From Candidatus Saccharimonadales bacterium (GTDB taxonomy: Bacteria > Patescibacteriota > Saccharimonadia > Saccharimonadales > UBA4665), in the NCBI GenBank assembly GCA_035692985.1, contig DASSHG010000009.1, positions 7,717-71,716 of the forward strand: a stretch of DNA of 64,000 bases, given 5' to 3'. The number at the start of each line of letters is the position of its first letter. Positions within the stretch are counted from its first letter, which is position 1. The notes beneath the pieces were generated by a model. That model was given only the letters and a program-made list of their open reading frames with translations, searched no databases and was not told the DNA's origin. Below, in pieces: positions 779 to 13,553 of the stretch. The translations under genes and the position numbers were made by a program.

Positions 779-1173
779 TGCTGGTACCCCTCACGGGAGC
801 ACTTTCCAAAAACGGAACCGCCAATCAGCTCGCACGCCTGAACGCGCTCCGCAAGAAGCTGCTCCGGGAAGCCGCCAAAGCGCCCAAGCTTCCGACACCT
901 CCCCCACCACGCCGCATTGGCGAAATCTCCGGGGCCATCAACGAAGTCTTGACCAACGCGTGCGAGCCGCTGCATGCCGCCGAAATCCATCACGCAGTCG
1001 AGCGCCTGCTTGGCCGCTCCGTCAACTACCGCTCCGTCAAAGGCTGTCTGTCCGAGGGAGCGGCGCACCGCCCACCGCGATTTGAGCGCATCAGCTACGG
1101 GCGATACCGGCTAGCAGCAAACGCAGGACTGGCCTCGGCGAACCGCCGCCGAGATCGGGGGAGACAAACCTAG
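778..1173 (+). CDS. detached C-terminal segment of the split serine integrase (winged-helix, HARE-HTH-like pattern); expressed alone it would be 131 aa
   Basis: GC-rich third codon positions. ...EPLHAAEIHHAVERLLGRSVNYRSVKGCLSEGAAHRPPRFERISYGRYRL resembles a winged-helix pattern. The frame is in phase with the int ORF across the 9-bp repeat. ATG 778-780 lies in host DNA just outside the repeat. Confidence 0.55.
   Translation: MLVPLTGALSKNGTANQLARLNALRKKLLREAAKAPKLPTPPPPRRIGEISGAINEVLTNACEPLHAAEIHHAVERLLGRSVNYRSVKGCLSEGAAHRPPRFERISYGRYRLAANAGLASANRRRDRGRQT
782..790. repeat. attL core, direct repeat TGGTACCCC
   Basis: Identical 9-mer to 13121-13129. GC-rich DNA starts here. Confidence 0.7.
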
Positions 1174-2402
1174 AACGGAATATCCTGACTATCGTCTTCG
1201 TGTGCCTCAGCTCCGGCGCCGTCGTCTTGTGGAACCGTTTCAGAACCACCGTTGCCATCGCTCTCAAGCACCTCATCAGATTCCTGACCAAACAGAATTC
1301 GCAGCCGTCGCAATACCTCGTCATAGGTGATTACCGTCAAACTGAATAGCCCTTGTCGGAAATGGTTGAACGAGTCCTGCTGACGCTGATCAAGAGAGTC
1401 GAGCATTCCGCAGATGAGCACGCCCTTTGGATGCACGCGATTCAGCCCCGCGAAGCCGAGTCCAAGCGTATGACTGAAATTGTCAATGGCGACTGCTATC
1501 TGATTCCGCACTTGAACAATCCCACCCGAAAGATCGGCATGGATACTGTAGCTCTCATTTGGCAATCCAGAGCCAACATCTCCACGGTAGATCGAGCCGA
1601 CAAGCCCAGCCGACGGAGTCTTGATGTCCACTACAGAAAAGCTCTTGGTGCTTGCATCTGAGGCGAGAAAGTCCGTCGCCACACCACCTTTACCCTGACG
1701 CCCAAGCGGAAGCTTTCCCCCGAGATAAACCTCATCCCCAAGTATAAACACGGATGCTGAAAAGACTGCTTGGAGAATCCACGGATTACTAGAGAAGAAC
1801 TCGTGCCAGAAGGGCTCATCCCCCCGATGGCTTTGGAGGGCTGCTTCAAGCTCGTCTATGACAGCCTCACGATCAAGTTGTATCTTCGCAATCGCAAGAC
1901 GAGAAGCAAGGTCAGGGTCTTTTTCGGTCAGCGCCTTCCAAAACTCTTGCGAATAGCCATGATCCAGCATCTCTTGAATAGCCTGGGATTTGGTACTGTC
2001 GTCAACGATCAGCACCTCCTCCTTCTTTGCGACAACGAAGTTGGCGTCCCCGTATTGAACACCCTGCCCCTGGACGCGATATAGATGGGTCAGCTTCTCG
2101 AACAGCCGAGTCGTCGCCTCGGTGTCAAGCTCAATCGCCACACCACAGTCGGCAGGGACTTTGGTGAAGTTGACCTCATTCACATCCTTCCATGAACCGT
2201 CTTGGCCGATCTTTTGTCGGATGATTTCCCCTCGCACCCCGCCGGAATGAAGCCCAGGTCGAAACACCGTGCGAGTTCGAGCCGTGGTACTCAGCACGAT
2301 GTCATCCGCCGTGGCGTAACCACGCTTAACGTAGTGCGTCTTAATCTCGTCTGCCAAGTTACCTCCTAAGGTGAACGCGCCGGACAGCGGCCCGGCAGCC
2401 AC
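1170..2402 (-). CDS. sduA: Shedu-type defence nuclease SduA (DUF4263, PD-(D/E)xK)
   Basis: FWHEFFSSNPWILQ..., TDFL...SFSVVDIKTP (D...D-x-K), VQVRNQ, KGVLICG and a C-proximal VITYDEVL match the DUF4263 pattern from memory. Start is GTG 2402; an alternative TTG at 2357 follows GGAGGT. Confidence 0.7.
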   Translation of the reverse strand: MAAGPLSGAFTLGGNLADEIKTHYVKRGYATADDIVLSTTARTRTVFRPGLHSGGVRGEIIRQKIGQDGSWKDVNEVNFTKVPADCGVAIELDTEATTRLFEKLTHLYRVQGQGVQYGDANFVVAKKEEVLIVDDSTKSQAIQEMLDHGYSQEFWKALTEKDPDLASRLAIAKIQLDREAVIDELEAALQSHRGDEPFWHEFFSSNPWILQAVFSASVFILGDEVYLGGKLPLGRQGKGGVATDFLASDASTKSFSVVDIKTPSAGLVGSIYRGDVGSGLPNESYSIHADLSGGIVQVRNQIAVAIDNFSHTLGLGFAGLNRVHPKGVLICGMLDSLDQRQQDSFNHFRQGLFSLTVITYDEVLRRLRILFGQESDEVLESDGNGGSETVPQDDGAGAEAHEDDSQDIPF

Positions 2403-2610: not shown

Positions 2611-3099
2611 CTAGTCGATGATTGGCGTAAGCCACGCCGAAGCGTCGGAGAAATTGACGGGCTCAGTTCGAGAGTCAGCTCGTAGCTTGTTGAGGCGAAC
2701 ACGACGCTGGTTCTTGCCATCAAGATTGAAACGATCCTCAATGACCTCTCGCGTGGCTTTGAGGCCCTCGGTAATCTGGAAATCCTCATCGAAAAGAACC
2801 ACGACAACTGAGTCGTACTCGTCCTCGCTAATGGGCGATAAGACGGTGGGCGTGGAGTCCGGCGTTTCGCGACGGGACTTGACCTGGATTCGCTCGCCAG
2901 ACGGGGTCTTCACGTCCCATCCCTTCTGACTAAAGGAAGCCCGCTCGCCCTTGAAGTGGTCGCAGACAATCGCCTCAGCGATATCCCCCACAGGGTTATT
3001 ATTGGTGCGGATAACTCCGAGAGCACGAAGCTGGCGCATAATCGCAACCCAGTCGCTTAATAGCTCACATTTATCCTTGCTACTTGCGTCGTAGGCCAC
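2611..3099 (-). CDS. small PD-(D/E)xK-like nuclease-fold protein (162 aa), family not identified
   Basis: GDIAEAIV...KGWDV...RIQVKSRR reads as a D...(E/Q)xK-type motif. GTG start with GGTGGAG upstream. Confidence 0.5.
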   Translation of the reverse strand: MAYDASSKDKCELLSDWVAIMRQLRALGVIRTNNNPVGDIAEAIVCDHFKGERASFSQKGWDVKTPSGERIQVKSRRETPDSTPTVLSPISEDEYDSVVVVLFDEDFQITEGLKATREVIEDRFNLDGKNQRRVRLNKLRADSRTEPVNFSDASAWLTPIID

Positions 3100-3123
3100 G
3101 CCTTATCTGCTCCACCCCGACGG

Positions 3124-3294
3124 CTACGTCTTCGGACGTTCGCCAGCCTCTTCACGAAGCATTTCAATTTCCCGTCGCACTCCATTCAGTAAGTCCCAAG
3201 TGTACTCATCGTCTTCGGTCTTGATCTGAGCAGCAAGCTGACGGACAACCTCCTCAAGATTCCGCAGAGCGTTGAGTATCGTTGTTGAGGTCAT
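3124..3294 (-). CDS. 56-aa helical/charged small protein
   Basis: Translated by hand as MTSTTILNALRNLEEVVRQLAAQIKTEDDEYTWDLLNGVRREIEMLREEAGERPKT. Its ATG abuts the upstream stop (TAGATG). Below the ORF-track cutoff. Confidence 0.4.
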   Translation of the reverse strand: MTSTTILNALRNLEEVVRQLAAQIKTEDDEYTWDLLNGVRREIEMLREEAGERPKT

Positions 3295-3693
3295 CTAGCC
3301 CTGGTTTTCGTCTGCGAGCTGGCGTGCAGTAAGCCCAACTACGAGGGCAAGGAAGGCAGCTGCATCAGCTTGCCTCTCAGCCGCTGCCACGACCGATCCA
3401 GTGGCCTCGCCCTCTGGTACCTGTAAATGCAAGGGAATTGCAGCACGATGCGCTTCCATGCCTTCCCAAAAAGCTCGCTGCGCATCATCACCCATACCGA
3501 CCGATTCCCGAAGGGCTCGTAGCTGATCGGTCGTTTTCTCGCCGCCCGTGAAGCTCTGCTCGATCGCTTCACGCACCGTGATCTCACCGGCCTCGGCTTG
3601 CGCCAAAAGCTCGTCGCTAACTGGCTCAAGCGTCACGAAGTCTCCCCAGCGTCTGAACGCCTCTCTGACCTCCTCTGGGCCGATCTCCGCCAC
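3295..3693 (-). CDS. hypothetical protein (132 aa)
   Basis: GC-rich ORF with a GTG start. It is the second gene of a same-strand operon. No recognisable motif. Confidence 0.55.
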   Translation of the reverse strand: MAEIGPEEVREAFRRWGDFVTLEPVSDELLAQAEAGEITVREAIEQSFTGGEKTTDQLRALRESVGMGDDAQRAFWEGMEAHRAAIPLHLQVPEGEATGSVVAAAERQADAAAFLALVVGLTARQLADENQG

Positions 3694-3717
3694 CGAGCGA
3701 AGCCTACCGCCTGTCCG

Positions 3718-4050
3718 CTAGCTCCTGACGATCTGCGAAACGCGCTGATGGCTCATGCCCATCACCTGGGCGATGGCCTTCATCGGCAGACCGTCCTTGT
3801 AGGCGGCGCGAACGGCTTCGTCCCGCTCCTCGCGGAGCCGCTCGGCCGCCTTCTCCAGCTCGCCTTGACGACGGGCATAGTCCTTGGCAAAGGCCTTTAG
3901 GCGGGTTTTGGCCTGCGGTGCATGGCGTTTGGGACGGGCGATACAGAGGATGCTCTGCGGTATTCCTGCTAGTCGGTTAGCATGAAGTCCTACGCAGGGA
4001 GAGGCGGCCGCCTCATCCGACCTCGATTCACAAGGAGGCGTCGTTGCCAA
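3718..4050 (-). CDS. helix-turn-helix DNA-binding protein (sigma-70 region-4-like C-terminus); start uncertain
   Basis: The C-terminus is DGLPMKAIAQVMGMSHQRVSQIVRS. The only in-frame start candidates are TTG 4050, a TTG near 4110 and ATG 4221. The longest version overlaps the well-supported gene at 4044. Confidence 0.5.
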   Translation of the reverse strand: MATTPPCESRSDEAAASPCVGLHANRLAGIPQSILCIARPKRHAPQAKTRLKAFAKDYARRQGELEKAAERLREERDEAVRAAYKDGLPMKAIAQVMGMSHQRVSQIVRS

Positions 4051-4889
4051 GCCGAGTCCGACTTTCCACCAGCCGCGTGGCAGTTCTGATCGGAGCCGTC
4101 CTCTTGCTCCTGCCCACGTCAACGCTTGCAGCCAGCGCCGGGGGCAAGCACCGTCGTCACGCTCATCCCCAGGTGTCCTGGACGCTGCCGCATGTAGTGA
4201 GCGAAGGCCAAACGATTCCATTTACCTGGAAGGCCACCGGCCACCTTGGCCCCAACTACCGCCTCGTCGTCCAGCGGCCGGTGGGTACCGCCCATACCTG
4301 GAAAACCATGCTGAGACTGAAAACCCGTAAGGGCTCAGCCGAGCTGCCAGGACAAAAGCTTGGCACCTACCGCTTCCGACTGGCAGCGCTCCGAGGACAC
4401 CTGGTGCTGGCCCAGAAAGTCCTCGGCATCGATGCGTTCGGTCAAGTGCCGTTCTCGGTGCTGCTGCGCAATGGCTACCTGACTACTGGACACCTGGAAA
4501 ACGGCGTCTATGCCACGCCATCAAGCAGCTTTCCCTATGTCGGGGGAGCCTACGTTGGAGACCATGGACGACCGAACACGGTCTTTTCGGTGAACCACAA
4601 CCGGTGCTCGGCAGTCCACGTTGGCTTCGTGCTCGGTGAAACGCCCGGCGAAGGCTATAGCTACCCCGCATCAATCTACGGTGTCGTTACGCTGGTACAG
4701 CAGTCCCGTGATCCGGTTGCATCGGAAGTGCCCTTCAATGGCATCGGCTCGGTAGACGCGGAACTTGTGCCTGGTCAGACCTGGTCCCTGCTGGTTGAAG
4801 AAAACAACCGGGAAGGCAAGCTAGGGTCGCCGACCGTCTACTTCAATGGCTACGCCATCTGCGACAGCACGGAATCGTTCTTCTCGTAA
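4044..4889 (+). CDS. secreted hypothetical protein (281 aa)
   Basis: TTG start 5 nt after AAGGAGG. Signal-peptide-like N-terminus RVAVLIGAVLLLLPTSTLAASA. Confidence 0.6.
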   Translation: MPSRVRLSTSRVAVLIGAVLLLLPTSTLAASAGGKHRRHAHPQVSWTLPHVVSEGQTIPFTWKATGHLGPNYRLVVQRPVGTAHTWKTMLRLKTRKGSAELPGQKLGTYRFRLAALRGHLVLAQKVLGIDAFGQVPFSVLLRNGYLTTGHLENGVYATPSSSFPYVGGAYVGDHGRPNTVFSVNHNRCSAVHVGFVLGETPGEGYSYPASIYGVVTLVQQSRDPVASEVPFNGIGSVDAELVPGQTWSLLVEENNREGKLGSPTVYFNGYAICDSTESFFS

Positions 4890-4955
4890 AGCGCCAGGGT
4901 GGAGCGGGCGTCTCAACTTCGTTGATACTCCGATCTGTGCATACTTCACCCTCTA

Positions 4956-5738
4956 ATGGCGGACGGAGCGAATAGAGCCGCAGAACTGCTTCAGCAAGCC
5001 TATGCGAGCGGAGAGCTTTCTGAGGAGTCCTCACAGGCTCTGATCGCGGCTGGAGACGTTGGTCGGGAGGTCGGCTACGCGCTCGGTGGGGGCGGCCACG
5101 GTGACGAATTGTTGCTTGTCACTATCCTTGCCGACGATTCAGGGTCTATCTCAGTCATTCCGGGCGGTGCGGAGGCGGTTCGCCAGGGTCACAACCACTG
5201 CCTTGACGCGCTCGACACCGAACAGGGAGCCGAAGCGCTCGTCCACACGCGCTATCTGAATGCCGGCAGCTTGTCCCCCTATCGAGGTCTAGCTACTGCC
5301 ACGCGCCTTAGCGCCGAGAACTTTAATCCCGTAGCCGGTCATACGCCGCTCTACAGGCAATCCGTTCTCACGCTAGGTGCCGTCATGGCGAAGGTTCAAG
5401 AGCAGAAGGCCGAGGGGCGGCTTGTCAGGGCTTTCACGCTCATCATTACCGACGGCGGCGACAATGCATCGGGCCAGGTAAGCGCCCAGCATGTGAACTT
5501 CCTCGTCCGCGACATGCTGGACTTCTCAGACGATTACATCGTCGCCGGTATGGGCATCGGTCAACGCGCCACATTCCAGCCCATCTTTCGCGCGATGGGA
5601 ATCCCGGAGGGTTGGATTCTCACCGCCGATGCCTTGCCAGAGGAGATAAGCAAGCTGTTCCGCAAAATCGCGCAATCCCTCCAGCTTGCGGCAAGCGGCG
5701 AGGCTGGCTGGCTTCAACTGGAGGCCGGACCGCCCTGA
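4956..5738 (+). CDS. von Willebrand factor A (vWA) domain protein with intact MIDAS
   Basis: LLLVTILADDSGSIS (DxSxS), GHTPLY (Thr) and LIITDGGDN (Asp) are arranged as in vWA domains. Confidence 0.7.
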   Translation: MADGANRAAELLQQAYASGELSEESSQALIAAGDVGREVGYALGGGGHGDELLLVTILADDSGSISVIPGGAEAVRQGHNHCLDALDTEQGAEALVHTRYLNAGSLSPYRGLATATRLSAENFNPVAGHTPLYRQSVLTLGAVMAKVQEQKAEGRLVRAFTLIITDGGDNASGQVSAQHVNFLVRDMLDFSDDYIVAGMGIGQRATFQPIFRAMGIPEGWILTADALPEEISKLFRKIAQSLQLAASGEAGWLQLEAGPP

Positions 5739-6094
5739 GATGGTGGCGATTGACGCCCATCGCCGGTTTCCTCCTCCTGTGGCCAGCAGCGAGCCAGCTC
5801 CTGGTCGGCATCCGGACCGGCATAAATGCCAAGACCGGGCTTGTGGGCTAATGGCCGCTCTTCGTCCAAGTCGAAAGCGTGGCCAGTGTAGACATTTTTC
5901 GAACCAAAGAAGTTTTCGACACTGTCAATTCGCGATAGGTGGGTCGCATCTGCTCGATCTTCCTGATTTTCTAAAAAGACAAAGCCCTTCGCCGCATATT
6001 CCGGCCAATTGTCTTCGGTAATAATGTCACGCCGTACCCGCACGAAGTTGGGGTCGCTATCAGCGGTTGGCTGCTGGGCTGAGGATTCACTCAT
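5714..6094 (-). CDS. hypothetical protein (126 aa)
   Basis: ORF with an ATG start. It converges on, and overlaps, the vWA gene by 25 nt. It diverges from the J-domain gene across an AT-rich ~65-nt spacer. Confidence 0.45.
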   Translation of the reverse strand: MSESSAQQPTADSDPNFVRVRRDIITEDNWPEYAAKGFVFLENQEDRADATHLSRIDSVENFFGSKNVYTGHAFDLDEERPLAHKPGLGIYAGPDADQELARCWPQEEETGDGRQSPPSQGGPASS

Positions 6095-6159
6095 ATATTA
6101 CATCCTGTTTACATACCCAGCGTACGCCCCCCTCCCGTGTAAGTCCAGAGGGTGATGCA

Positions 6160-6924
6160 ATGCCCGACGATGCATCACTGGACTTCTTCAAGCTGCTTGG
6201 GGTCGGGCGCGATGCCTCCGACCAAGAAATCAAGAAAGCGCACAAACGGCTGGTCCGGAAGTACCACTCAGATACTGGCGGCGCGACAGCGAACGACGAG
6301 AAGTTCATGAAAATACAGGCGGCATATGAGACGCTTAAAGATCCCTACAAGCGAGCAGAACACGAAGCCGAGCTAGGAAAACAGGAGCAAGCGAAGATGC
6401 GTCGCCGCGAGCAAGCACGGCGGCGCCGAGCCCGCGCCCCAACGGAAGACGCGACGAATATCTTCGGGGAACACATCCGTGATTCCCACTCCAATACTGG
6501 ACCGGGCGTGTCGTCTCGGCCACCACACGCCGCGAGCCCACCCCCAAGAGCATCACCAGCCCCTCCGCCGCCAGGCTCTACCAACCGGCCGAAGCCGTCA
6601 CCGACCCCAGCGCCATCTTACCCGCCTCCGATGAGATGGTACGAGTATTTCCTCGCGGATTCCGTATCCGGAAAACTCCTCGCGCTGTTCGCATCAGCGG
6701 GACTGACGACTGCGGTCATTCTCATCCCCCATGCGGTGGCTACCGGCATAGAAGCGGGGGCATCTCAAGATCACAATTTTCTCGCGGCGCTTGTACTTCT
6801 CGCGGCCGGGCTCGCGGGCGGTATCGGGGGAATCTTTGGAATACTCCTGACGGCATACTGTTTCTTCTCCCTTATCGCTGTGACCCTACGGGAGATAGGC
6901 AGCGCCTTGCGTCAGACGCCGTAA
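6160..6924 (+). CDS. J-domain membrane protein with HSD in place of HPD
   Basis: LDFFKLLGVGRDASDQEIKKAHKRLVRKYHSDTGG...KIQAAYETLKDPYKRAEHE is a J domain. A Pro-rich linker and 2-3 C-terminal TM helices follow. ATG 6160 is Met32 of the track ORF. Confidence 0.7.
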   Translation: MPDDASLDFFKLLGVGRDASDQEIKKAHKRLVRKYHSDTGGATANDEKFMKIQAAYETLKDPYKRAEHEAELGKQEQAKMRRREQARRRRARAPTEDATNIFGEHIRDSHSNTGPGVSSRPPHAASPPPRASPAPPPPGSTNRPKPSPTPAPSYPPPMRWYEYFLADSVSGKLLALFASAGLTTAVILIPHAVATGIEAGASQDHNFLAALVLLAAGLAGGIGGIFGILLTAYCFFSLIAVTLREIGSALRQTP

Positions 6925-7952
6925 GTGTCGGCCTCCTCACCGGATAGTCGATAGAAGTCCGCCACCCGATACCAGTCCTCATCAATGAGGCCGATGAATT
7001 CATCGGCTGCTCGTTGCCAACGGTGGTAATCGCAGTCGCACTCTCCGCCGTCCGGCTCTAGGCAGTTCGCCCACCGGAGCCATACCCCCATCAGCTCTTG
7101 GCGTCGCTCACCAGCCTCGACCAAGAGATTTCCAAAGCCGTCCAACTCCTCATGCGGCGCATCAGCCAGCAACGTCCGGAGCCAGGAGCTGTCGGTCTCG
7201 CCTAGCGGCGCAAGAAGCTGGAGCTGGTAAATAGCGTCGGCCGCGGCGATCTCGCAGTCCATCTCCGCCAGCAGCCACAGGCCGCCTTGCTCATCCACGA
7301 AACGCTGCAAGGCCAGCTCAAACCTAGCCCACTGCCAGGTGATGTTGGCCAGGCGGTCAGAGACGGCGTGCCGGTCCTCCTCCTCGGCCGCCAGGTATCC
7401 CCTGAGCACCACCAGGTCATTTCTCATGCCAGCTACCGGTGTCCAGATGCGCCGGTAGCTACGGTGTTGCTCCAGCCAGTCGATGCCCAGGCCGGACTGC
7501 TCCGGCGTGCGCTCGGCTTCCATTCGGTGCCGGTGTCGCAAGCGGTAAGCGCTGTCAGCCGCACACAACTCGTCGGCAACCGCTTCGAGCAGCAATGGCT
7601 CGCGCTCCTTGCGGAAATGTTCCTGCGAGACGTGCAGGGCTCCGGCGGCTTGCCGTCGCCGCTCCTTGAGCAAGGAGCCACGAGTACCCGTAGCCAGGCC
7701 CAGCAAGATAGAGGCTGGCCCATTGCTACCGCCATCCAACCGCTGCGCGGCCTCCACGATCAGGGTATGGGCAGCCACCGCGAGATCGGTGTCTTGCTCG
7801 CTAGCTGACTTAGCTTTCACGAGCGCCAAGCCCAGGACCGTCGAGCAGGCCCGTAGGCCCTCGGTCGTGACGCCGCCGCGCAGCAAGTCTCCCAGCTCAG
7901 CGGCCAGCTCATCAGGTGACGGGATAGCTGCCTCGTTCATCAAGTTCCCCAC
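6912..7952 (-). CDS. hypothetical protein (346 aa; start GTG 7952 or ATG 7940)
   Basis: Long GC-rich ORF with a Cys/His-containing C-terminal part (CLEPDGGECDCDYH). No family recognised. Confidence 0.6.
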   Translation of the reverse strand: MGNLMNEAAIPSPDELAAELGDLLRGGVTTEGLRACSTVLGLALVKAKSASEQDTDLAVAAHTLIVEAAQRLDGGSNGPASILLGLATGTRGSLLKERRRQAAGALHVSQEHFRKEREPLLLEAVADELCAADSAYRLRHRHRMEAERTPEQSGLGIDWLEQHRSYRRIWTPVAGMRNDLVVLRGYLAAEEEDRHAVSDRLANITWQWARFELALQRFVDEQGGLWLLAEMDCEIAAADAIYQLQLLAPLGETDSSWLRTLLADAPHEELDGFGNLLVEAGERRQELMGVWLRWANCLEPDGGECDCDYHRWQRAADEFIGLIDEDWYRVADFYRLSGEEADTYGV

Positions 7953-8316
7953 TAAAGCACCGGGAAGCCCCCACTTGCTTCCTCGACGATGCGGTCGTGA
8001 ACAAACCGACCGTCTTTCTCATCGTCGCCATCGTAACCCTGAGCTTCTTGGTCTCGGCTGGACCGGCGCTGGTGGCTCTCGCTAACGCTGCCGTTCCACT
8101 CGTCCTGGTCGTCGGCGTGGTGGTCGTGGCGCTACGGCTCGTCTTTTTCCACACCCGACGCTGGTGATGGCAGGTGGAGATTTCAAGTTGTGCATTCCAC
8201 GCCTTGACCGGCCAACTGAAGCAGGCGGACAATGGAGGGTTACGTCTGAACCTGAGTTCCTCGCCCTCATCCCCGAAAACGTGACCTTCAAGAACTAAAT
8301 GAAGGGAGGTATCACC

Positions 8317-8469
8317 ATGCCAAGAAAACGAAAACCGACCAGGCAGGTCCGGGTCCGCGACATACCGCTGTCTGAGATTGACGAGACGAAGGTCGCCCTG
8401 GCGTTCTGGCTGATGGCCAAGCGCCTCATTGACGAACAGGACGCCGAAAGCGAATCGGTAGCGCCGTGA
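8317..8469 (+). CDS. 50-aa basic/acidic small protein, first gene of the transfer operon
   Basis: GAAGGGAGG lies 7 nt before the ATG. Its stop overlaps the next start (GTGA). Sequence MPRKRKPTRQVRVRDIPLSEIDETKVALAFWLMAKRLIDEQDAESESVAP. Confidence 0.45.
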   Translation: MPRKRKPTRQVRVRDIPLSEIDETKVALAFWLMAKRLIDEQDAESESVAP

Positions 8470-10547
8470 CCCACAAGAAGCTGGACTGGTTTCAGCTTCA
8501 GTTTCCGCAGGGAGTTGAGACAGACCACCTGCTGGCTGGCCTGTCGTCGTTCTCCGGCGTCCCGTTCCGCGCCCGCATCGTCCTCGACCTGACCGCCACG
8601 GCGGAAGGCATCAAGCACTTGCTGGGCGTAACGCCCAAAGACACCGGCACCGTCACCGCCGCGCTGCGCGCCGCCATGCCGAGTCTGCGCCTGGCTCACG
8701 TCGAAGCGCCACCGCGCCCACCACGCCGCTGGCTGTGGCAGACAGCGCCCCGCGTCGCCAGCCTGCGTAGTGAGGAGCCAATCGCCATTGCCGCCGCTCT
8801 CTTGTCCAGCCTGTTCCCGCTGGACGGTGATGAGGCTGTCCGTCTCACCTGGACGCTGCGCTCCTGGCCACGGCCGCCGTTGCCAGTCGGCCGCTATGAC
8901 GCCCAGGACGGACGAGAAAGGGTAGTGCGCGCCAAGCTGAGCCTGCCGGGCCTTGCCGCCTACGGCGAGCTGTCAACTGTCGCCAAAACGCCAGCCCGCC
9001 GTGCCGAGCTGACTCAGCGCACCGCCTCGGCCCTATGGAGCCTCAGCACTCCCTTTGGTCGCTTGGCCGTTGACCCATACTGGCTCGGACAAGTAGCCCG
9101 CCTGCTTGGCCTGCGCGGCCGTTACCTGAGCGCTCCAGAGCTGGCCGCCGTCATCGGCTGGCCGGTCGGCAGTCCCGACCTACCAGGCCTGGAGCTGGGC
9201 GCGGCCAAGCGGCTGGTGCCCGCCGCCAGCCTGCCCGAAGACGGCCGGGTTCTCGGTGTAAGCGACTTCGCCGGAATCACCCGACCGGTTGCTATCTCCG
9301 CCACCGCCTCGACGCGCGGGCTGTACGTCCTCGGCCCCACCGGCACCGGTAAGACCAATCTACTCAAGAACCTCATCCGCGATGACCTCGAGCAGGGCCG
9401 GGGCCTGGTGGTCGTGGAGACCAACGGCGATCTCATCCAAGAGCTGTGCGATGTCATCCCGCCGGAGCGTGTGAATGACGTAGTGCTGCTCGACCCGACC
9501 GACCGCGACAGCGCCGTCGGCTTCAACCCCCTCGCCAGCGGTTCCGAGCCCTCCCTGATCGCCGACCAGCTCTCTGAGCTGTTCCAGCGGCTCTGGGAGG
9601 CGTTCTGGGGACCGCGCACCGCCCAGCTGACCCACATGGGCTTGCTAACCCTGGCGCGCCGTCCTGGTTCCACGCTACTCGACCTGCCGCGCCTCTACCT
9701 TGACTCCGCTTTCCGCGAGAAGGTGTTGGCCGACCTGGACGATCCTCTCGGCCTCGGCCCGGACTGGCAGTGGTTCGAGAACCTGCCGACCCGCGAACAG
9801 GCCAACGTCGTCGCCCCCCTGCTCAACAAGGTGCGCGCCTTCACCGCGCGTCCGGCCATCCGCGCCATCGTCGGCCAGCCGAAGCCGCGCCTCACCATGC
9901 ACCAGATCATCGAGCAGAAAAAGGTGCTGCTCGTCCACCTGCCAAAGGGCCTGATCGGCTCCGAGACCGCACAACTGCTCGGCTGTCTCGTCCTCACAGC
10001 CGTTTGGCAGGCCGCCGCCGAACGGGCCGCCTTGCCGCCGAGCCAGCGCCACCCGGTCTCGCTCTACGTCGATGAGGTACAGGACTTCGCCTCGGCCCCG
10101 GTGCCCTGGGACGAGATGTTCGCCCAGGGGCGCAAGTACGGGCTGGCTCTGACCGCCGCCCATCAGAACCTTGAGCAACTGCCGAAGGAGCTGAGGGAGG
10201 TTGTGCTGGCCAATGCCCGTTCAAAGGCGGTGTTCGCCCTCAGCGCCACGGACGCGAGGACTATGGAGCGGCTGTTTGAGCCCGCCCTGACAGCCGCCGA
10301 CCTGCAAGCCCTTGACGCTTACTCGGTCGCCGCCCTGGTGGCACTGGACAATGGCAGCGCCGCCCGGCCGGTGACGCTGACCACGCCGCCGCCCGTGAAG
10401 TCACTGGGCAGCAGGGCGCAGGTCCGCGCGACCTCGCACCAACATTACGCCCGCCCGCGAGCTGAGATCGAGGCCGAACTGCGCCGAGGCGTAACTCCAA
10501 GGCGACCCAAAACGCCAGTCGGCCGCAAGCCCCGGAGGGCGTCATGA
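8466..10547 (+). CDS. TraD/VirD4-family (type IV secretion DNA-transfer) P-loop ATPase without N-terminal TM
   Basis: Walker A GPTGTGKT and Walker B LYVDEVQDF. The C-terminal FAQGRKYGLALTAAHQNLEQL resembles the TraD/TraG coupling-protein module. Confidence 0.7.
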   Translation: MTHKKLDWFQLQFPQGVETDHLLAGLSSFSGVPFRARIVLDLTATAEGIKHLLGVTPKDTGTVTAALRAAMPSLRLAHVEAPPRPPRRWLWQTAPRVASLRSEEPIAIAAALLSSLFPLDGDEAVRLTWTLRSWPRPPLPVGRYDAQDGRERVVRAKLSLPGLAAYGELSTVAKTPARRAELTQRTASALWSLSTPFGRLAVDPYWLGQVARLLGLRGRYLSAPELAAVIGWPVGSPDLPGLELGAAKRLVPAASLPEDGRVLGVSDFAGITRPVAISATASTRGLYVLGPTGTGKTNLLKNLIRDDLEQGRGLVVVETNGDLIQELCDVIPPERVNDVVLLDPTDRDSAVGFNPLASGSEPSLIADQLSELFQRLWEAFWGPRTAQLTHMGLLTLARRPGSTLLDLPRLYLDSAFREKVLADLDDPLGLGPDWQWFENLPTREQANVVAPLLNKVRAFTARPAIRAIVGQPKPRLTMHQIIEQKKVLLVHLPKGLIGSETAQLLGCLVLTAVWQAAAERAALPPSQRHPVSLYVDEVQDFASAPVPWDEMFAQGRKYGLALTAAHQNLEQLPKELREVVLANARSKAVFALSATDARTMERLFEPALTAADLQALDAYSVAALVALDNGSAARPVTLTTPPPVKSLGSRAQVRATSHQHYARPRAEIEAELRRGVTPRRPKTPVGRKPRRAS

Positions 10548-10663
10548 GCGCGCCGCTCGCCCGTCCGGTCGCGTCGAGCAGACCGCCGCTCATTCCAGCT
10601 CTCAAAGCCCCAACCCGGCCCATTTCGCTAACGACTGATTACGGAAAACGAGGTTGGCAATGA
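10544..10663 (+). CDS. possible 39-aa Pro/Arg-rich micro-ORF
   Basis: ATGA overlaps at both ends (10544-10547 and 10660-10663), with CGGAGGG upstream. Its composition could equally be GC-rich noise. Confidence 0.3.
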   Translation: MSAPLARPVASSRPPLIPALKAPTRPISLTTDYGKRGWQ

Positions 10664-11478
10664 GCGCCCGCTACGTCACGGCAGCGGCACTGCGGAAGCT
10701 GGCCGCCCAGCTCACCGAGCGGGACCACGAACTCGTCCAGACGGTCTGCGTCCTGCGCTTCGTGTCCGGCTCCCAGCTTCAACGGATGCACTTCACGGAC
10801 GCCGAAGGCGACGACGCCAACGCCCGCACCGCTCGCCGGGCTCTACTGCGCCTCGTCAGCCTGGGCGTGCTGGAGCGTCTGCCACGCCAGGTCGGAGGCG
10901 TCCGCGCCGGGAGTGCTGGATTCGTCTACCGGCTTGGCCGTGCCGGTCAGCGCCTGGCCGTCGAGCGGGGCTGGTCGTCGAACAGCCGCCGCCAGTGGCA
11001 GTCGCACGTACCGGGCAGGTTGTTCCTCGACCACGCCCTCCAGGTTGCTGAACTGCACACGCTGATCGTGGAAGCCGACCGCGCCGGGCTGGTCGAGTTG
11101 CTGTGGCTGGAGGCAGAGCCCGCCTGCTGGCGGTCCTACGGCCAGCGCGCCACTCTCAAGCCGGACAGCCATGTCCGGCTGGGCATCGGTGACTACGAGG
11201 ACAGCTACATGATTGAGGTGGACATGGGAACCGAGAGCAGCCGGACGCTGGAGCGCAAGCTGGGCGACTACCTGACCTACGAAGCCAGCGGGCGCGAGCA
11301 GGCCGAGCACGGCGTCTTCCCCAAGACGCTCTGGCTGGTGCCGGACGCAGAGCGGGCGAGGGTCATCGAGAGCTGCATCGAGCGGCTGCCGCGCTCAGCG
11401 CATCGGCTGTTCGCCGTCAACCAGTTCAAGGACGTGATCGCGGCCGTCGCGACCCCTGAACCAGCGGACAAAGGCTAG
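10660..11478 (+). CDS. replication-relaxation (Replic_Relax-like) family protein
   Basis: RRALLRLVSLGVLERLPRQVGGVRAGSAGFVYRLGRAGQRL (wHTH) and KPDSHVRL...YMIEVDMGTES...LERKLGDY match my recollection of the family. ATG 10660 follows ACGAGG. Confidence 0.65.
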   Translation: MSARYVTAAALRKLAAQLTERDHELVQTVCVLRFVSGSQLQRMHFTDAEGDDANARTARRALLRLVSLGVLERLPRQVGGVRAGSAGFVYRLGRAGQRLAVERGWSSNSRRQWQSHVPGRLFLDHALQVAELHTLIVEADRAGLVELLWLEAEPACWRSYGQRATLKPDSHVRLGIGDYEDSYMIEVDMGTESSRTLERKLGDYLTYEASGREQAEHGVFPKTLWLVPDAERARVIESCIERLPRSAHRLFAVNQFKDVIAAVATPEPADKG

Positions 11479-11526
11479 GAACGACTTGTTCCTGCAAGTA
11501 AAATAGAAGGAATAGAGAGGAGGGAT

Positions 11527-13329
11527 ATGAACCAAGAACAACCAACTAAACGCGCCGTCATCTACCTGCGCGTGTCGTCGGCCCAGCAGGCCGACAAGGA
11601 CTTCGACGCCGAGGGCTTCTCCATCCCCGGCCAACGCGAAGCCTGCACCCGCGAGGCCGACAAGCTCGGCGCTGAGATAGCTGATGAATACATCGACCGG
11701 GGCGAGTCCGCCAAGACCGCCCGCCGACCGGCGCTCCGGGCAATGCTCGACCGACTAGGGCGCAGCGACATTGACTACGTGATCGTCCACAAGGTGGACC
11801 GCCTGGCAAGGAACCGCGCCGACGACATCGAGATCGTCATGACCATCCGCAAAGCCGGAGCCCAGCTCGTCTCCGTCACCGAGAACATCGACGAGACGCC
11901 CTCGGGCCTGCTGATGCACGGCATCATGTCGTCAATCGCCGAGTTCTACAGCCGCAACCTGGCGGCTGAGGTCATGAAGGGGACGACGCAGAAGGCCAAG
12001 AGCGGGGGCACGCCGTTCCGTGCACCGGTCGGCTATCTGCACGACCGCCTGACGGTCGATGGCCGCGAGGTCCGCACCGTGGTTCTCGACCCGGAGCGCG
12101 CCCCGTTGATCCGCGAAGCCTTCAAGCTCTACACCACCGGCGACTACTCGCTTGCCGAGCTGGCGGCGATCATGGAGGAACGCGGCCTGCGCTCCCGCCC
12201 GACCCGCAAGTACTCGTCCCGCGCCCTCAAAGTCAAGGATCTGCACGCCATCCTGCGCAACTCCTACTACGTAGGCGTCGTCACCTACAACGGCAAGACC
12301 TATCCCGGTCGACACGAGCCGCTGGTGGACGAGGCGACGTTTGAGGAAGTTGGGGAGCTACTGACTTCCAAGCGCGTCAGCGGCGAACGCCCCTGGCGGC
12401 ACTTCCACTACCTGCGCGGTTCCATTTACTGCGGCGAGTGCCGCCGACGCCTGATCTACAGCCGCGCCAAAGGCAAGGGCGGCGAGTACGAGTACTTCGT
12501 CTGCGGGGGTCGCCAGCACGGCAACTGCAAACAGCGCAGCCACCGCGTGGAAGCAGTCGAGGCAGCCGTAGAGAACGCCTACGCCGACAAGGAGCTGAAC
12601 GACGAGCAGCGCGAGAAAGTCCGGCAGGCGATCCAGTCTCAGGTAGACGCCCTGACGCTCTTGTCCGCCGAGAAGGTGGCCGAGGGCGAAACGAAACTCG
12701 CCGAGCTTGAGAGGCAGGAACGGAAGCTCCTGACCGCCCACTACGCCGACCAGATATCCGAGGCGCTGTTCGCCGAGGAGCAGAAACGGATCAAACGGGA
12801 GCGCGTCGGTGCCGAAAAGCGCATCGACAGCCTGAGCGTCGATCACGAACAAGCCATGCAGACGCTCGACCTGGCACTCGCCCTGACGGACGACACCCAG
12901 CGGGCCTATCTGCAAGCTGGGCCGCAAGAACGGCGGCTACTGAACCAGGGGCTCTCAGACCGATTCGAGATACGGGACGAGGAAGTCGTCTGCGACCACC
13001 GAGCCGAGCCCTTCGGCCAGCTCCGCAAGCTCGGCAAGGGCTGGGACGGCAGCGAAGCCGCCACCAAAGCCAAAACCCTCGCCTCTGCTGAGAGAGACGA
13101 GGGTTTGAACGTCGCAAGCTTGGTACCCCGGGTAGGATTCGAACCTACGACCTATGGGTTAGAACTCCATTGCTCTATCCAGCTGAGCTACCGGGGCTTG
13201 GGGTGTTACGTGGTGCGGGATGGCGGAATCGAACCGCCAGCTCTAGCTTGGAAGGCTAGCGTATTAGCCGTTATACAAATCCCGCATAACAGAGGTGATT
13301 ATATCATACATGCTACAATCACAGCATGA
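11527..13329 (+). CDS. large serine recombinase (integrase); the last ~70 codons are read antisense through host tRNA genes
   Basis: AVIYLRVSSAQQ (catalytic Ser), VHKVDRLARN, a recombinase domain, the zinc ribbon CGECRRRL...FVCGG...GNC and a coiled coil. There is no stop before the att core at 13121. Stop TGA 13327-13329 lies in host DNA. Confidence 0.85.
   Translation: MNQEQPTKRAVIYLRVSSAQQADKDFDAEGFSIPGQREACTREADKLGAEIADEYIDRGESAKTARRPALRAMLDRLGRSDIDYVIVHKVDRLARNRADDIEIVMTIRKAGAQLVSVTENIDETPSGLLMHGIMSSIAEFYSRNLAAEVMKGTTQKAKSGGTPFRAPVGYLHDRLTVDGREVRTVVLDPERAPLIREAFKLYTTGDYSLAELAAIMEERGLRSRPTRKYSSRALKVKDLHAILRNSYYVGVVTYNGKTYPGRHEPLVDEATFEEVGELLTSKRVSGERPWRHFHYLRGSIYCGECRRRLIYSRAKGKGGEYEYFVCGGRQHGNCKQRSHRVEAVEAAVENAYADKELNDEQREKVRQAIQSQVDALTLLSAEKVAEGETKLAELERQERKLLTAHYADQISEALFAEEQKRIKRERVGAEKRIDSLSVDHEQAMQTLDLALALTDDTQRAYLQAGPQERRLLNQGLSDRFEIRDEEVVCDHRAEPFGQLRKLGKGWDGSEAATKAKTLASAERDEGLNVASLVPRVGFEPTTYGLELHCSIQLSYRGLGCYVVRDGGIEPPALAWKASVLAVIQIPHNRGDYIIHATITA
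13073..13106. repeat. perfect 9-bp inverted repeat (AAACCCTCG N16 CGAGGGTTT) 14 nt from the att core
   Basis: Seen directly. It lies inside the int ORF. It could be part of an att arm or a hairpin terminating the tRNA transcript. Confidence 0.5.
13121..13129. repeat. attR core, direct repeat TGGTACCCC (reverse complement of the tRNA-Arg 3' end GGGGTACCA)
   Basis: Identical to 782-790. GC-rich DNA ends here. Confidence 0.7.
13121..13197 (-). tRNA. tRNA-Arg (anticodon TCT), CCA encoded
   Basis: Hand-folded cloverleaf GCCCCGG/TA/GCTC..GAGC/ATGGA-GTTCTAA-CCCAT/AGGTC/GTAGG-TTCGAAT-CCTAC/CCGGGGT-ACCA. It has an A31-C39 mismatch and a G1-U72 pair. Confidence 0.85.
13211..13285 (-). tRNA. tRNA-Gly (anticodon TCC), CCA encoded
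   Basis: GCGGGAT..CTAGC-CTTCCAA-GCTAG..GGCGG-TTCGATT-CCGCC-ATCCCGC-ACCA. Confidence 0.9.
13289..13306 (-). promoter_or_regulatory. tRNA-Gly/Arg promoter: TGATATAATCACCTCTGT, ending 3 nt before the mature tRNA 5' end
   Basis: The 15-nt TATAATCACCTCTGT is identical at 16274-16288 (+) and 19513-19527 (-). Confidence 0.6.
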
Positions 13330-13553
13330 TAAGTGACTTTGCTTTCCTGGGCTTCGGCCCACTTATGAGCACAGTGGTCATCTTGGTTTTGCTGATTATT
13401 TTCGCGTTTGAAATTTGGATGTTCGTCAGCGCTATCACCAATAAAGTCATTGCCGGTACCGCCAAAATCTGGTGGATCGTGGGGATGGTGCTGATACACC
13501 CAATCGTGGCCATTATCTATTACTTTACCGACTATAAAAAAGAAGGCAGATAA
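13326..13553 (+). CDS. small membrane protein, PLD-nuclease N-terminal (PLDc_N)-like
   Basis: Two TM helices. ...FEIWMFVSAI...AKIWWIVGMVLIHPIVAIIYYF resembles the PLDc_N pattern. TGCTACAAT lies 6 nt before the ATG. Confidence 0.5.
   Translation: MISDFAFLGFGPLMSTVVILVLLIIFAFEIWMFVSAITNKVIAGTAKIWWIVGMVLIHPIVAIIYYFTDYKKEGR

Follow-up and report, generated by a model that had tools for sequence, protein, structure and literature searches.

A Shedu gene with an acidic C-terminal tail

The subject of this study is a gene for a nuclease of the Shedu (SduA) anti-phage family, found in a 64,000-nucleotide stretch of DNA (hereafter the window) on a 276,746-bp contig of a Candidatus Saccharimonadales (TM7) metagenome-assembled genome (MAG), and in particular the acidic tail of the encoded protein, whose last residues resemble the C-terminal tip of SSB, the bacterial single-stranded DNA-binding protein. 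This gene lies on the minus strand, a point on which the original prediction, made from the letters of the window, was silent. Its open reading frame (ORF) occupies 1170-2402, including the TAG stop codon at 1170-1172, and encodes 410 aa when read from GTG; the plus-strand translation of the same interval is full of stops. The 410-aa form has the length of NCBI record HET7060192.1, a member of the same 90% cluster, and NCBI already annotates the gene as Shedu. We consider the TTG codon at 2355-2357 more likely to be the true start, and the GTG start 15 codons too long, because a perfect AGGAGG (2362-2367) precedes the TTG by 4 nt on the minus strand (2355-2367 in all) and homologues begin at the TTG position. 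The resulting 395-aa form has an exact match in the protein collection, and a 96%-identical homologue, P0001, is also 395 aa long.

The assignment to Shedu holds. Pfam places the SduA_C/DUF4263 domain (PF14082), a PD-(D/E)xK nuclease, at residues 195-364 (1311-1820, minus strand; E 7.6e-17, 62.4 bits against a cutoff of 27), and the best SduA model of PADLOC spans nearly the whole protein (E 4.5e-49). The nuclease motifs GVATDFL (1665-1685), VVDIKTP (1614-1634) and IVQVRN (1503-1520), all on the minus strand, retain the Asp of the first, the D-x-K of the second and the Gln of the third, and the residues D229, K246 and Q282 (395-aa numbering) are invariant across 150 sequences. It had been thought that the N-terminal ~130 aa match nothing recognisable, and this proved wrong: residues 29-115 (2058-2318, minus strand) are SduA_N (PF21407, E 7.6e-11), the sPC4/Whirly-like sensor domain of Type 1A Shedus. 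AlphaFold2 (AF2) models residues 1-110 with a predicted local distance difference test score (pLDDT) of 83-97, and Foldseek adds weak matches to the PC4 homologues 4bg7 and 5a4n. The nearest solved structure is that of the Shedu from Bacillus cereus (8ti8/8ti9), matched by phmmer at E 3e-30 over residues 15-370 of the 410-aa form and by Foldseek at E 6e-12; it is a Type 1A protein whose sPC4/Whirly-like N-domain has been proposed to sense single-stranded nucleic acid and whose R29A mutant loses defence (Gu et al., bioRxiv 10.1101/2023.08.10.552793). The equivalent Arg of the window protein, within RTRTVFRP (2256-2279, minus strand), aligns with that of B. cereus and is invariant in the homologue alignment. 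The window protein is a Type 1A Shedu, with an sPC4/Whirly-type sensor, a helical linker and a DUF4263 nuclease.

Beyond the core, which ends ...RILFG, the protein continues for 38 residues, QESDEVLESDGNGGSETVPQDDGAGAEAHEDDSQDIPF (1173-1286), and then stops at the TAG. The tail holds 13 D/E, no K/R and 9 G/S, and can be divided into a polyanionic linker, QESDEVLESDGNGGSETVPQDDGAGAEAHEDDSQ (1185-1286, minus strand), hypervariable among homologues, and a tip resembling the SSB C-terminus (SSB-Ct), D-I-P-F, at the extreme C-terminus (1173-1184, minus strand). An AF2 model built from 150 sequences is confident over the core (mean pLDDT 88.5) and predicts the tail to be disordered (pLDDT 47-61). 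The tail and its D-I-P-F end had been read correctly as written, and the presence of an SSB-tip-like tail on the window Shedu is confirmed.

Conservation and distribution of the tip

We placed the end of the core by hidden Markov model in 292 proteins and counted as a tip any terminal x-P-[F/W] on a tail of 8 aa or more. The proteins fall into three sets, namely 120 close homologues, 62 proteins from named genome loci and 110 representatives, the last being members of 50%-identity clusters retrieved with a core-only query, which keeps that set free of tail bias. A tip ends 68/120 of the close homologues, 23/110 of the representatives and 17/62 of the proteins from genome loci. Within the best 120 homologues (53-96% identity), 75 proteins end in F and 12 in W, and the tips include DIPF (28), DLPF (10), EIPF (8), DIPW (4) and EPPF (4). 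In the logo of the 108 tips, position -5 is D/E in 90 (83%) and position -4 in 100 (93%), followed by I60 L23 P7 F6 V6 M4 at -3, an invariant P at -2 (108/108) and F99 W9 at -1. The family tip is thus [DE][DE][ILV]PF, which is the SSB-Ct consensus, and in both proteins it stands at the extreme C-terminus, so that the likeness first seen in a single protein is borne out by the family; the tip is DDDIPF in Escherichia coli SSB (PMC5872125) and DDEPPF in mycobacterial SSB (PMC3575820, PMC7847540). The length of tip-bearing tails ranges over 11-61 aa, and their median net charge is -6.

A chance origin of the tip is excluded. The Shedu is the sole one of 422 stop-to-stop ORFs of the window (at least 60 aa, six frames) to end [DE][ILVMFP]P[FW], and over 0.9 Mb of homologue loci x-P-[FW] ends occur in 21/4,093 ORFs, 20 of which are Shedu genes; the remaining ORF is basic and probably spurious, giving a background of 1 in ~4,070. 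Conservation across homologues had been set beforehand as the point on which the idea of a meaningful tail could fail, and the comparison found that the linker varies and the tip is kept. Close carriers are 63% identical in the nuclease core versus 29% in the linker; between the window protein and P0001, 346/357 core residues and 32/38 tail residues are identical, including all of the last six; and the tip is common to carriers down to 21% nuclease-core identity. The tip is therefore under purifying selection in many Shedu lineages, with the linker drifting.

The tip also crosses sensor types. A second lineage, whose named members are mostly Alphaproteobacteria and whose N-domain has no PF21407 match, carries it in 52/120 proteins (IPF 36, VPF 9, MPF 6, TPF 1), and it is present without a PF21407 match in Reyranella, Rhizomicrobium, Arcicella and one Chloroflexota protein. 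We accordingly rejected the idea that the tip is confined to Shedus with a Whirly N-domain. Its occurrence with and without PF21407 speaks for a reader that lies elsewhere than in the sensor domain, and against a role bound to a single sensor fold. The tip was not found on the plasmid Shedus of cultured Priestia, Mycobacterium, Rhodococcus, Glutamicibacter, P. aeruginosa and Rhizobium, and a search of the phage GenBank collection gave no match.

This pattern bears on whether the tail has a specific partner at all. It could be a generic solubility or entropic tail without one, or it could address a client outside repair such as ClpX, so that the level of Shedu is controlled by proteolysis or by the unfoldase. 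The C-terminal 10-mer of mycobacterial SSB, FGGGDDEPPF, activates ClpX in a manner that needs the terminal Phe, although SSB itself was not degraded by ClpXP in the same study (PMC7847540). Frequent loss of the tip in evolution would suit either version, but if the tail were generic, proteins whose cores are only 21% identical would not retain [DE][DE][ILV]PF as their very last residues, and we regard this pair of explanations as improbable. Two other C-terminal signals were considered and rejected on the tip consensus, a beta-clamp-binding motif for want of the Q-L-x-L-F pattern and an ssrA-like degron for want of a non-polar, LAA-type end.

Several variations on the tail were seen along the way. 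Some homologues end in near-variants of the tip (-IAF, -IIF, -IDF, -LDF, -EWW), and the Trp-ended tips, in eight close homologues and one protein from a genome locus, take the forms D-I-P-W, E-I-P-W, E-V-P-W and D-F-P-W, so that in some hosts bulkier aromatics may be tolerated or preferred by whatever reads the tip. Bipartite tails make up 20/184 of the tails of at least 15 aa, all in the close clade of the window protein; these have an internal DD[IVE]PWP(D/T)EP about 25 residues before a terminal D[LF]PF tip, and often a central D-W. Because no free carboxylate can be presented internally, the internal motif may be a second, different docking site. The genomic contexts of four homologues have 58-66% GC.

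Genomic neighbourhood

The window Shedu is flanked by the 3' end of a murA-like ORF, so named from a reading of its translation, and by a DUF6998/mREase_II-like gene for a putative methyl-directed restriction enzyme (2611-3099, minus strand; PADLOC mREase_II E 4.5e-25, Pfam DUF6998 E 8.6e-11), which lies directly upstream on the same strand across a 208-bp gap. The two form a small defence islet, by position only and with no implication of joint action. On the downstream side, a plus-strand ORF of 131 aa (778-1173) with a weak HARE-HTH match (E 2.6e-4, below the Pfam cutoff) converges on the Shedu gene and overlaps its stop codon and the last base of its final Phe codon (1170-1173); this ORF is in turn overlapped by a minus-strand ORF at 409-1068.

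An island of high GC extends from 3000 to 13330, with 59-69% GC versus 50-55% in its flanks. It holds genes for a sigma70-r4-like HTH protein (3718-4221, minus strand) and, on the plus strand, a DnaJ-domain protein (6067-6924), a TrwB/TraG-like coupling ATPase (8466-10547), a Replic_Relax protein (10654-11478) and a large serine recombinase (11527-13329); tRNA-Arg(tct) (13121-13197) and tRNA-Gly(tcc) (13211-13285) stand at its end. The island looks like an integrative mobilisable or conjugative element in the Saccharimonadales genome, and its high GC may point to a source in Actinobacteria, the bacteria on which TM7 cells live. The 13 nearest genome-resolved relatives of the Shedu (53-61% identity over the best tblastn segment) come from other Saccharibacteria, Solirubrobacterales, Acidimicrobiales/Acidimicrobiaceae and Mycobacterium MAGs, together with one Burkholderiaceae MAG, which suggests that the gene has been exchanged horizontally between TM7 epibionts and Actinomycetota.

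Docking, partner and host comparisons

If the tip had a dedicated pocket on its own protein, one might expect a core column linked in near all-or-none fashion to the presence of the tip, and none was found. Among basic candidates R153 did best, with a basic residue in 74/87 carriers versus 34/63 non-carriers, a weak association confounded by phylogeny. Nor does AF2 dock the tail in cis: the tip is unplaced in the monomer model of the window protein with its 38-aa tail (pLDDT 47-61, as above) and in that of an alphaproteobacterial homologue with a 12-aa tail (pLDDT <50). Both negatives are weak, since these are monomer models built with deep alignments, to which docking in trans within the tetramer is invisible.

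Both results bear on the possibility that the tail is a self-inhibitory pseudo-substrate, its DNA-mimicking linker covering either the nuclease groove or the basic surface with which the N-terminal sensor binds nucleic acid, in its own protomer or an adjacent one of the tetramer, and the aromatic tip anchoring it, until real substrate displaces it. The linkers are suited to this in composition (D/E 30%, K/R 4%), the N-domain has an ssDNA-binding-type fold (ssDNA, single-stranded DNA) with an essential Arg, Shedu is already autoinhibited through its N-terminal and linker domains, and in the acidic tail of the phage T7 SSB the terminal Phe is essential for function. Acidic tails compete with ssDNA in this way in SSB, T7 gp2.5 and T4 gp32. 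Against it stand the failure of AF2 to dock tail or tip in two lineages, the absence of a core column near all-or-none with the tip, and the occurrence of the exact SSB consensus with and without the PF21407 N-domain, which a private pocket does not require. Since monomer models are blind to docking between protomers, we take self-inhibition, the chief rival of the reading favoured below, to be only weakly disfavoured, and somewhat unlikely as the main role of the tail.

We also looked for a partner encoded nearby. No neighbour family is common to more than 9/79 loci and none tracks the tip, so there is no dedicated partner gene; here too, Shedu is a single-gene system with no obligatory co-encoded partner among 79 loci. 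Any partner of the tip would therefore be a housekeeping protein, a phage-encoded one or Shedu itself, the last of which would again accord with self-inhibition. An ssb gene was not found in the window or in 80 homologue loci. Three IMG/VR viral contigs encode Shedu relatives, two of which bear tips (DIDDLPF, and a very acidic tail ending EAEQLPF). One of the three contigs, L091 (15846-16418), also encodes an SSB that is 63% identical to that of M. tuberculosis and has an atypical end, PDPEPEF, and the adjoining Shedu lacks a canonical tip.

It is also possible that the tail binds SSB itself, its tips settling on the OB (oligonucleotide/oligosaccharide-binding) fold of a host or phage SSB as SSB tips do on neighbouring SSB tetramers, so that Shedu would be placed on SSB-coated ssDNA or in SSB condensates and released when ssDNA appears. 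The contact between tip and OB fold in SSB is weak and largely electrostatic, which leaves the strict P at -2 and F at -1 unexplained. A tetramer with four tails would resemble the geometry of SSB, phage SSBs trigger several defence systems, and SSB condensation driven by linker and tip has been described (bioRxiv 797431), but the Shedu linker is unlike the condensation-prone Gly/Gln/Pro linker in composition. We consider binding to SSB itself quite improbable.

A further comparison concerns the match between tips and hosts. Two -EPPF Shedus adjoin DUF397 + HTH_31/DUF5753 gene pairs, which we take to be typical of Actinobacteria, a group with DDEPPF as its SSB tip; in the alphaproteobacterial lineage position -3 is only I/V/M/T, with no L or P; and two Bacteroidota carriers have -LPF tips. 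These observations, few in number and confounded by descent, are consistent with tips tuned to the SSB-reading pockets of their resident hosts.

A possible SSB-tip mimic

We favour, at a probability of roughly 45%, the reading that the tail imitates the SSB tip and docks in trans onto the SSB-client pockets of host or phage DNA-metabolism proteins. What argues for it is the retention of the exact SSB consensus by lineages that differ in N-domain and whose cores are as little as 21% identical; a pocket private to Shedu would not require this. On this reading a Type 1A Shedu has acquired an accessory C-terminal module consisting of a disordered polyanionic linker and a copy of the SSB tip ([DE][DE][ILV]-P-F-COOH), of which the homotetramer, as characterised Shedus are, would display four, as SSB does. 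The tips might then plug in trans into the sites, each a hydrophobic pocket with a basic ridge, by which proteins of replication, repair and recombination ordinarily recognise the SSB tip. Candidate targets in the host would be exonucleases and helicases such as RecJ, RecQ, ExoI, PriA and RecO, and in the phage, those annealases and replication proteins that make use of the tip of host SSB. Docking could bring the nuclease to the ssDNA or double-stranded DNA ends of an invader and to replication or recombination intermediates or, alternatively, could recruit or stimulate host degradative enzymes at DNA that Shedu has bound or cut. The acidic linker might additionally shield DNA-binding surfaces until substrate arrives; mimicry in trans and self-inhibition are not mutually exclusive, and the tail of SSB itself both docks partners and competes with ssDNA.

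A more pointed version, which we think unlikely, makes the tail a molecular bait, whereby the Shedu tetramer would be captured by phage proteins that hijack host SSB, such as annealases of the Red-beta/Orf type or helicase loaders, and the invader's own machinery would deliver the nuclease to phage DNA or license it there. Phage proteins do read the host SSB tip, an example being lambda Red-beta, whose Kd for the SSB-Ct peptide of E. coli is 11 uM (PMC6393309).

Several points weigh against mimicry of the SSB tip in trans. The mechanism is wholly one that we infer, as is every statement on function made here. The tip is evolutionarily labile, with 53 parsimony changes on a 264-sequence tree versus ~81 when its states are shuffled, and on account of this lability it is an accessory feature of Shedu, not an essential one. 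It is missing from both structurally characterised Shedus and from all named Bacillota members, from which it follows that core Shedu function does not need it. The polyanionic composition of Shedu linkers differs from the Gly/Gln/Pro-rich linker of E. coli SSB, and a DNA-mimic or self-inhibitory role fits such a linker at least as well. Shedu tips end in Trp in 9/108 cases (8%), and we know of no SSB tip that does so. The window protein has a single acidic residue directly before IPF (S-Q-D-I-P-F), so that, counting from its end, positions -4, -5 and -6 are D, Q and S and positions -7/-8 are D-D; E. coli SSB has D-D at -5/-6. As for any tuning of tips to hosts, Saccharibacteria carry -IPF as well as -LPF tips, and Solirubrobacterales and Acidimicrobiales Shedus carry -IPF.

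Significance

On the question of how Shedu separates invader from host DNA, a review concludes that it needs further and possibly host-specific determinants of specificity beyond the N-terminal sensor (2026, PMC12904381). The tail, whose conserved SSB-like tip is borne by between about one-fifth and one-half of the Shedu proteins in several lineages, is a concrete candidate for such a determinant. The original prediction held that the feature was undescribed for Shedu, and we agree: a search of the literature linking Shedu or anti-phage defence with SSB, SSB-Ct, a C-terminal tail or mimicry found no paper that describes it, and the two founding Shedu papers (bioRxiv 10.1101/2023.08.10.552793 and 10.1101/2023.08.10.552762) contain neither 'SSB' nor 'acidic' and describe no C-terminal tail. 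As far as we have found, the SSB-tip tail is an undescribed, conserved accessory module on a known family, Shedu Type 1A. If the tips do dock in trans, an immune nuclease would be joined to the network of SSB interactions around which replication, repair and recombination are organised and which phages also exploit, and Shedu would be, as far as we have found, the first defence protein to bear the tip of SSB instead of sensing SSB. If the tail were a bait, an immune protein would be sensing infection by mimicry of a host hub motif, and this would fill the place of Shedu's missing host-specific determinant.

Comparison with known systems

The closest characterised relative, the Shedu of B. cereus B4264, shares with the window protein the PF21407 N-domain and its essential Arg, the helical linker and the DUF4263 nuclease, but its nuclease motif is E-I-K where the window protein has D-I-K, and at 382 aa it ends about 6 residues past the core, without acidic tail or tip. 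E. coli SduA (8ps4/8ps5; Loeff et al., bioRxiv 10.1101/2023.08.10.552762), which acts as a defence system of one gene and senses the ends of DNA, has the same nuclease core and belongs to the same tetrameric family, but it has a different N-terminal clamp domain and, at 411 aa, ends about 5 residues past the core, again without a tail. The tail, lacking in the two model Shedus, would thus escape current mechanistic models.

The likeness to SSB goes beyond the consensus of the tip. The variants found at -3 in Shedu tips (I, L, P) are the same as in SSBs, the SSB tail is likewise a conserved tip on a disordered linker of variable length and sequence, and characterised Shedus are homotetramers, with four tips to display, as in SSB. 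The OB fold of SSB is absent, however: the window protein has SduA_N and SduA_C only and is not an SSB, and tblastn with SSB found no match in the window.

Phage T7 offers a further parallel outside SSB-Ct itself. The tail of T7 gp2.5 is unstructured and strongly acidic, ends in an essential Phe and serves in protein-protein docking, and the Shedu tail is similar in design, although the T7 tails have another motif with no I-P-F end, occur in other organisms and belong to replication proteins rather than to an immune nuclease. The gp2.5 tail competes with ssDNA, and the T7 gp4 helicase-primase has a tail similar to that of gp2.5, which provides a precedent for an enzyme that is not an SSB copying an SSB tail.

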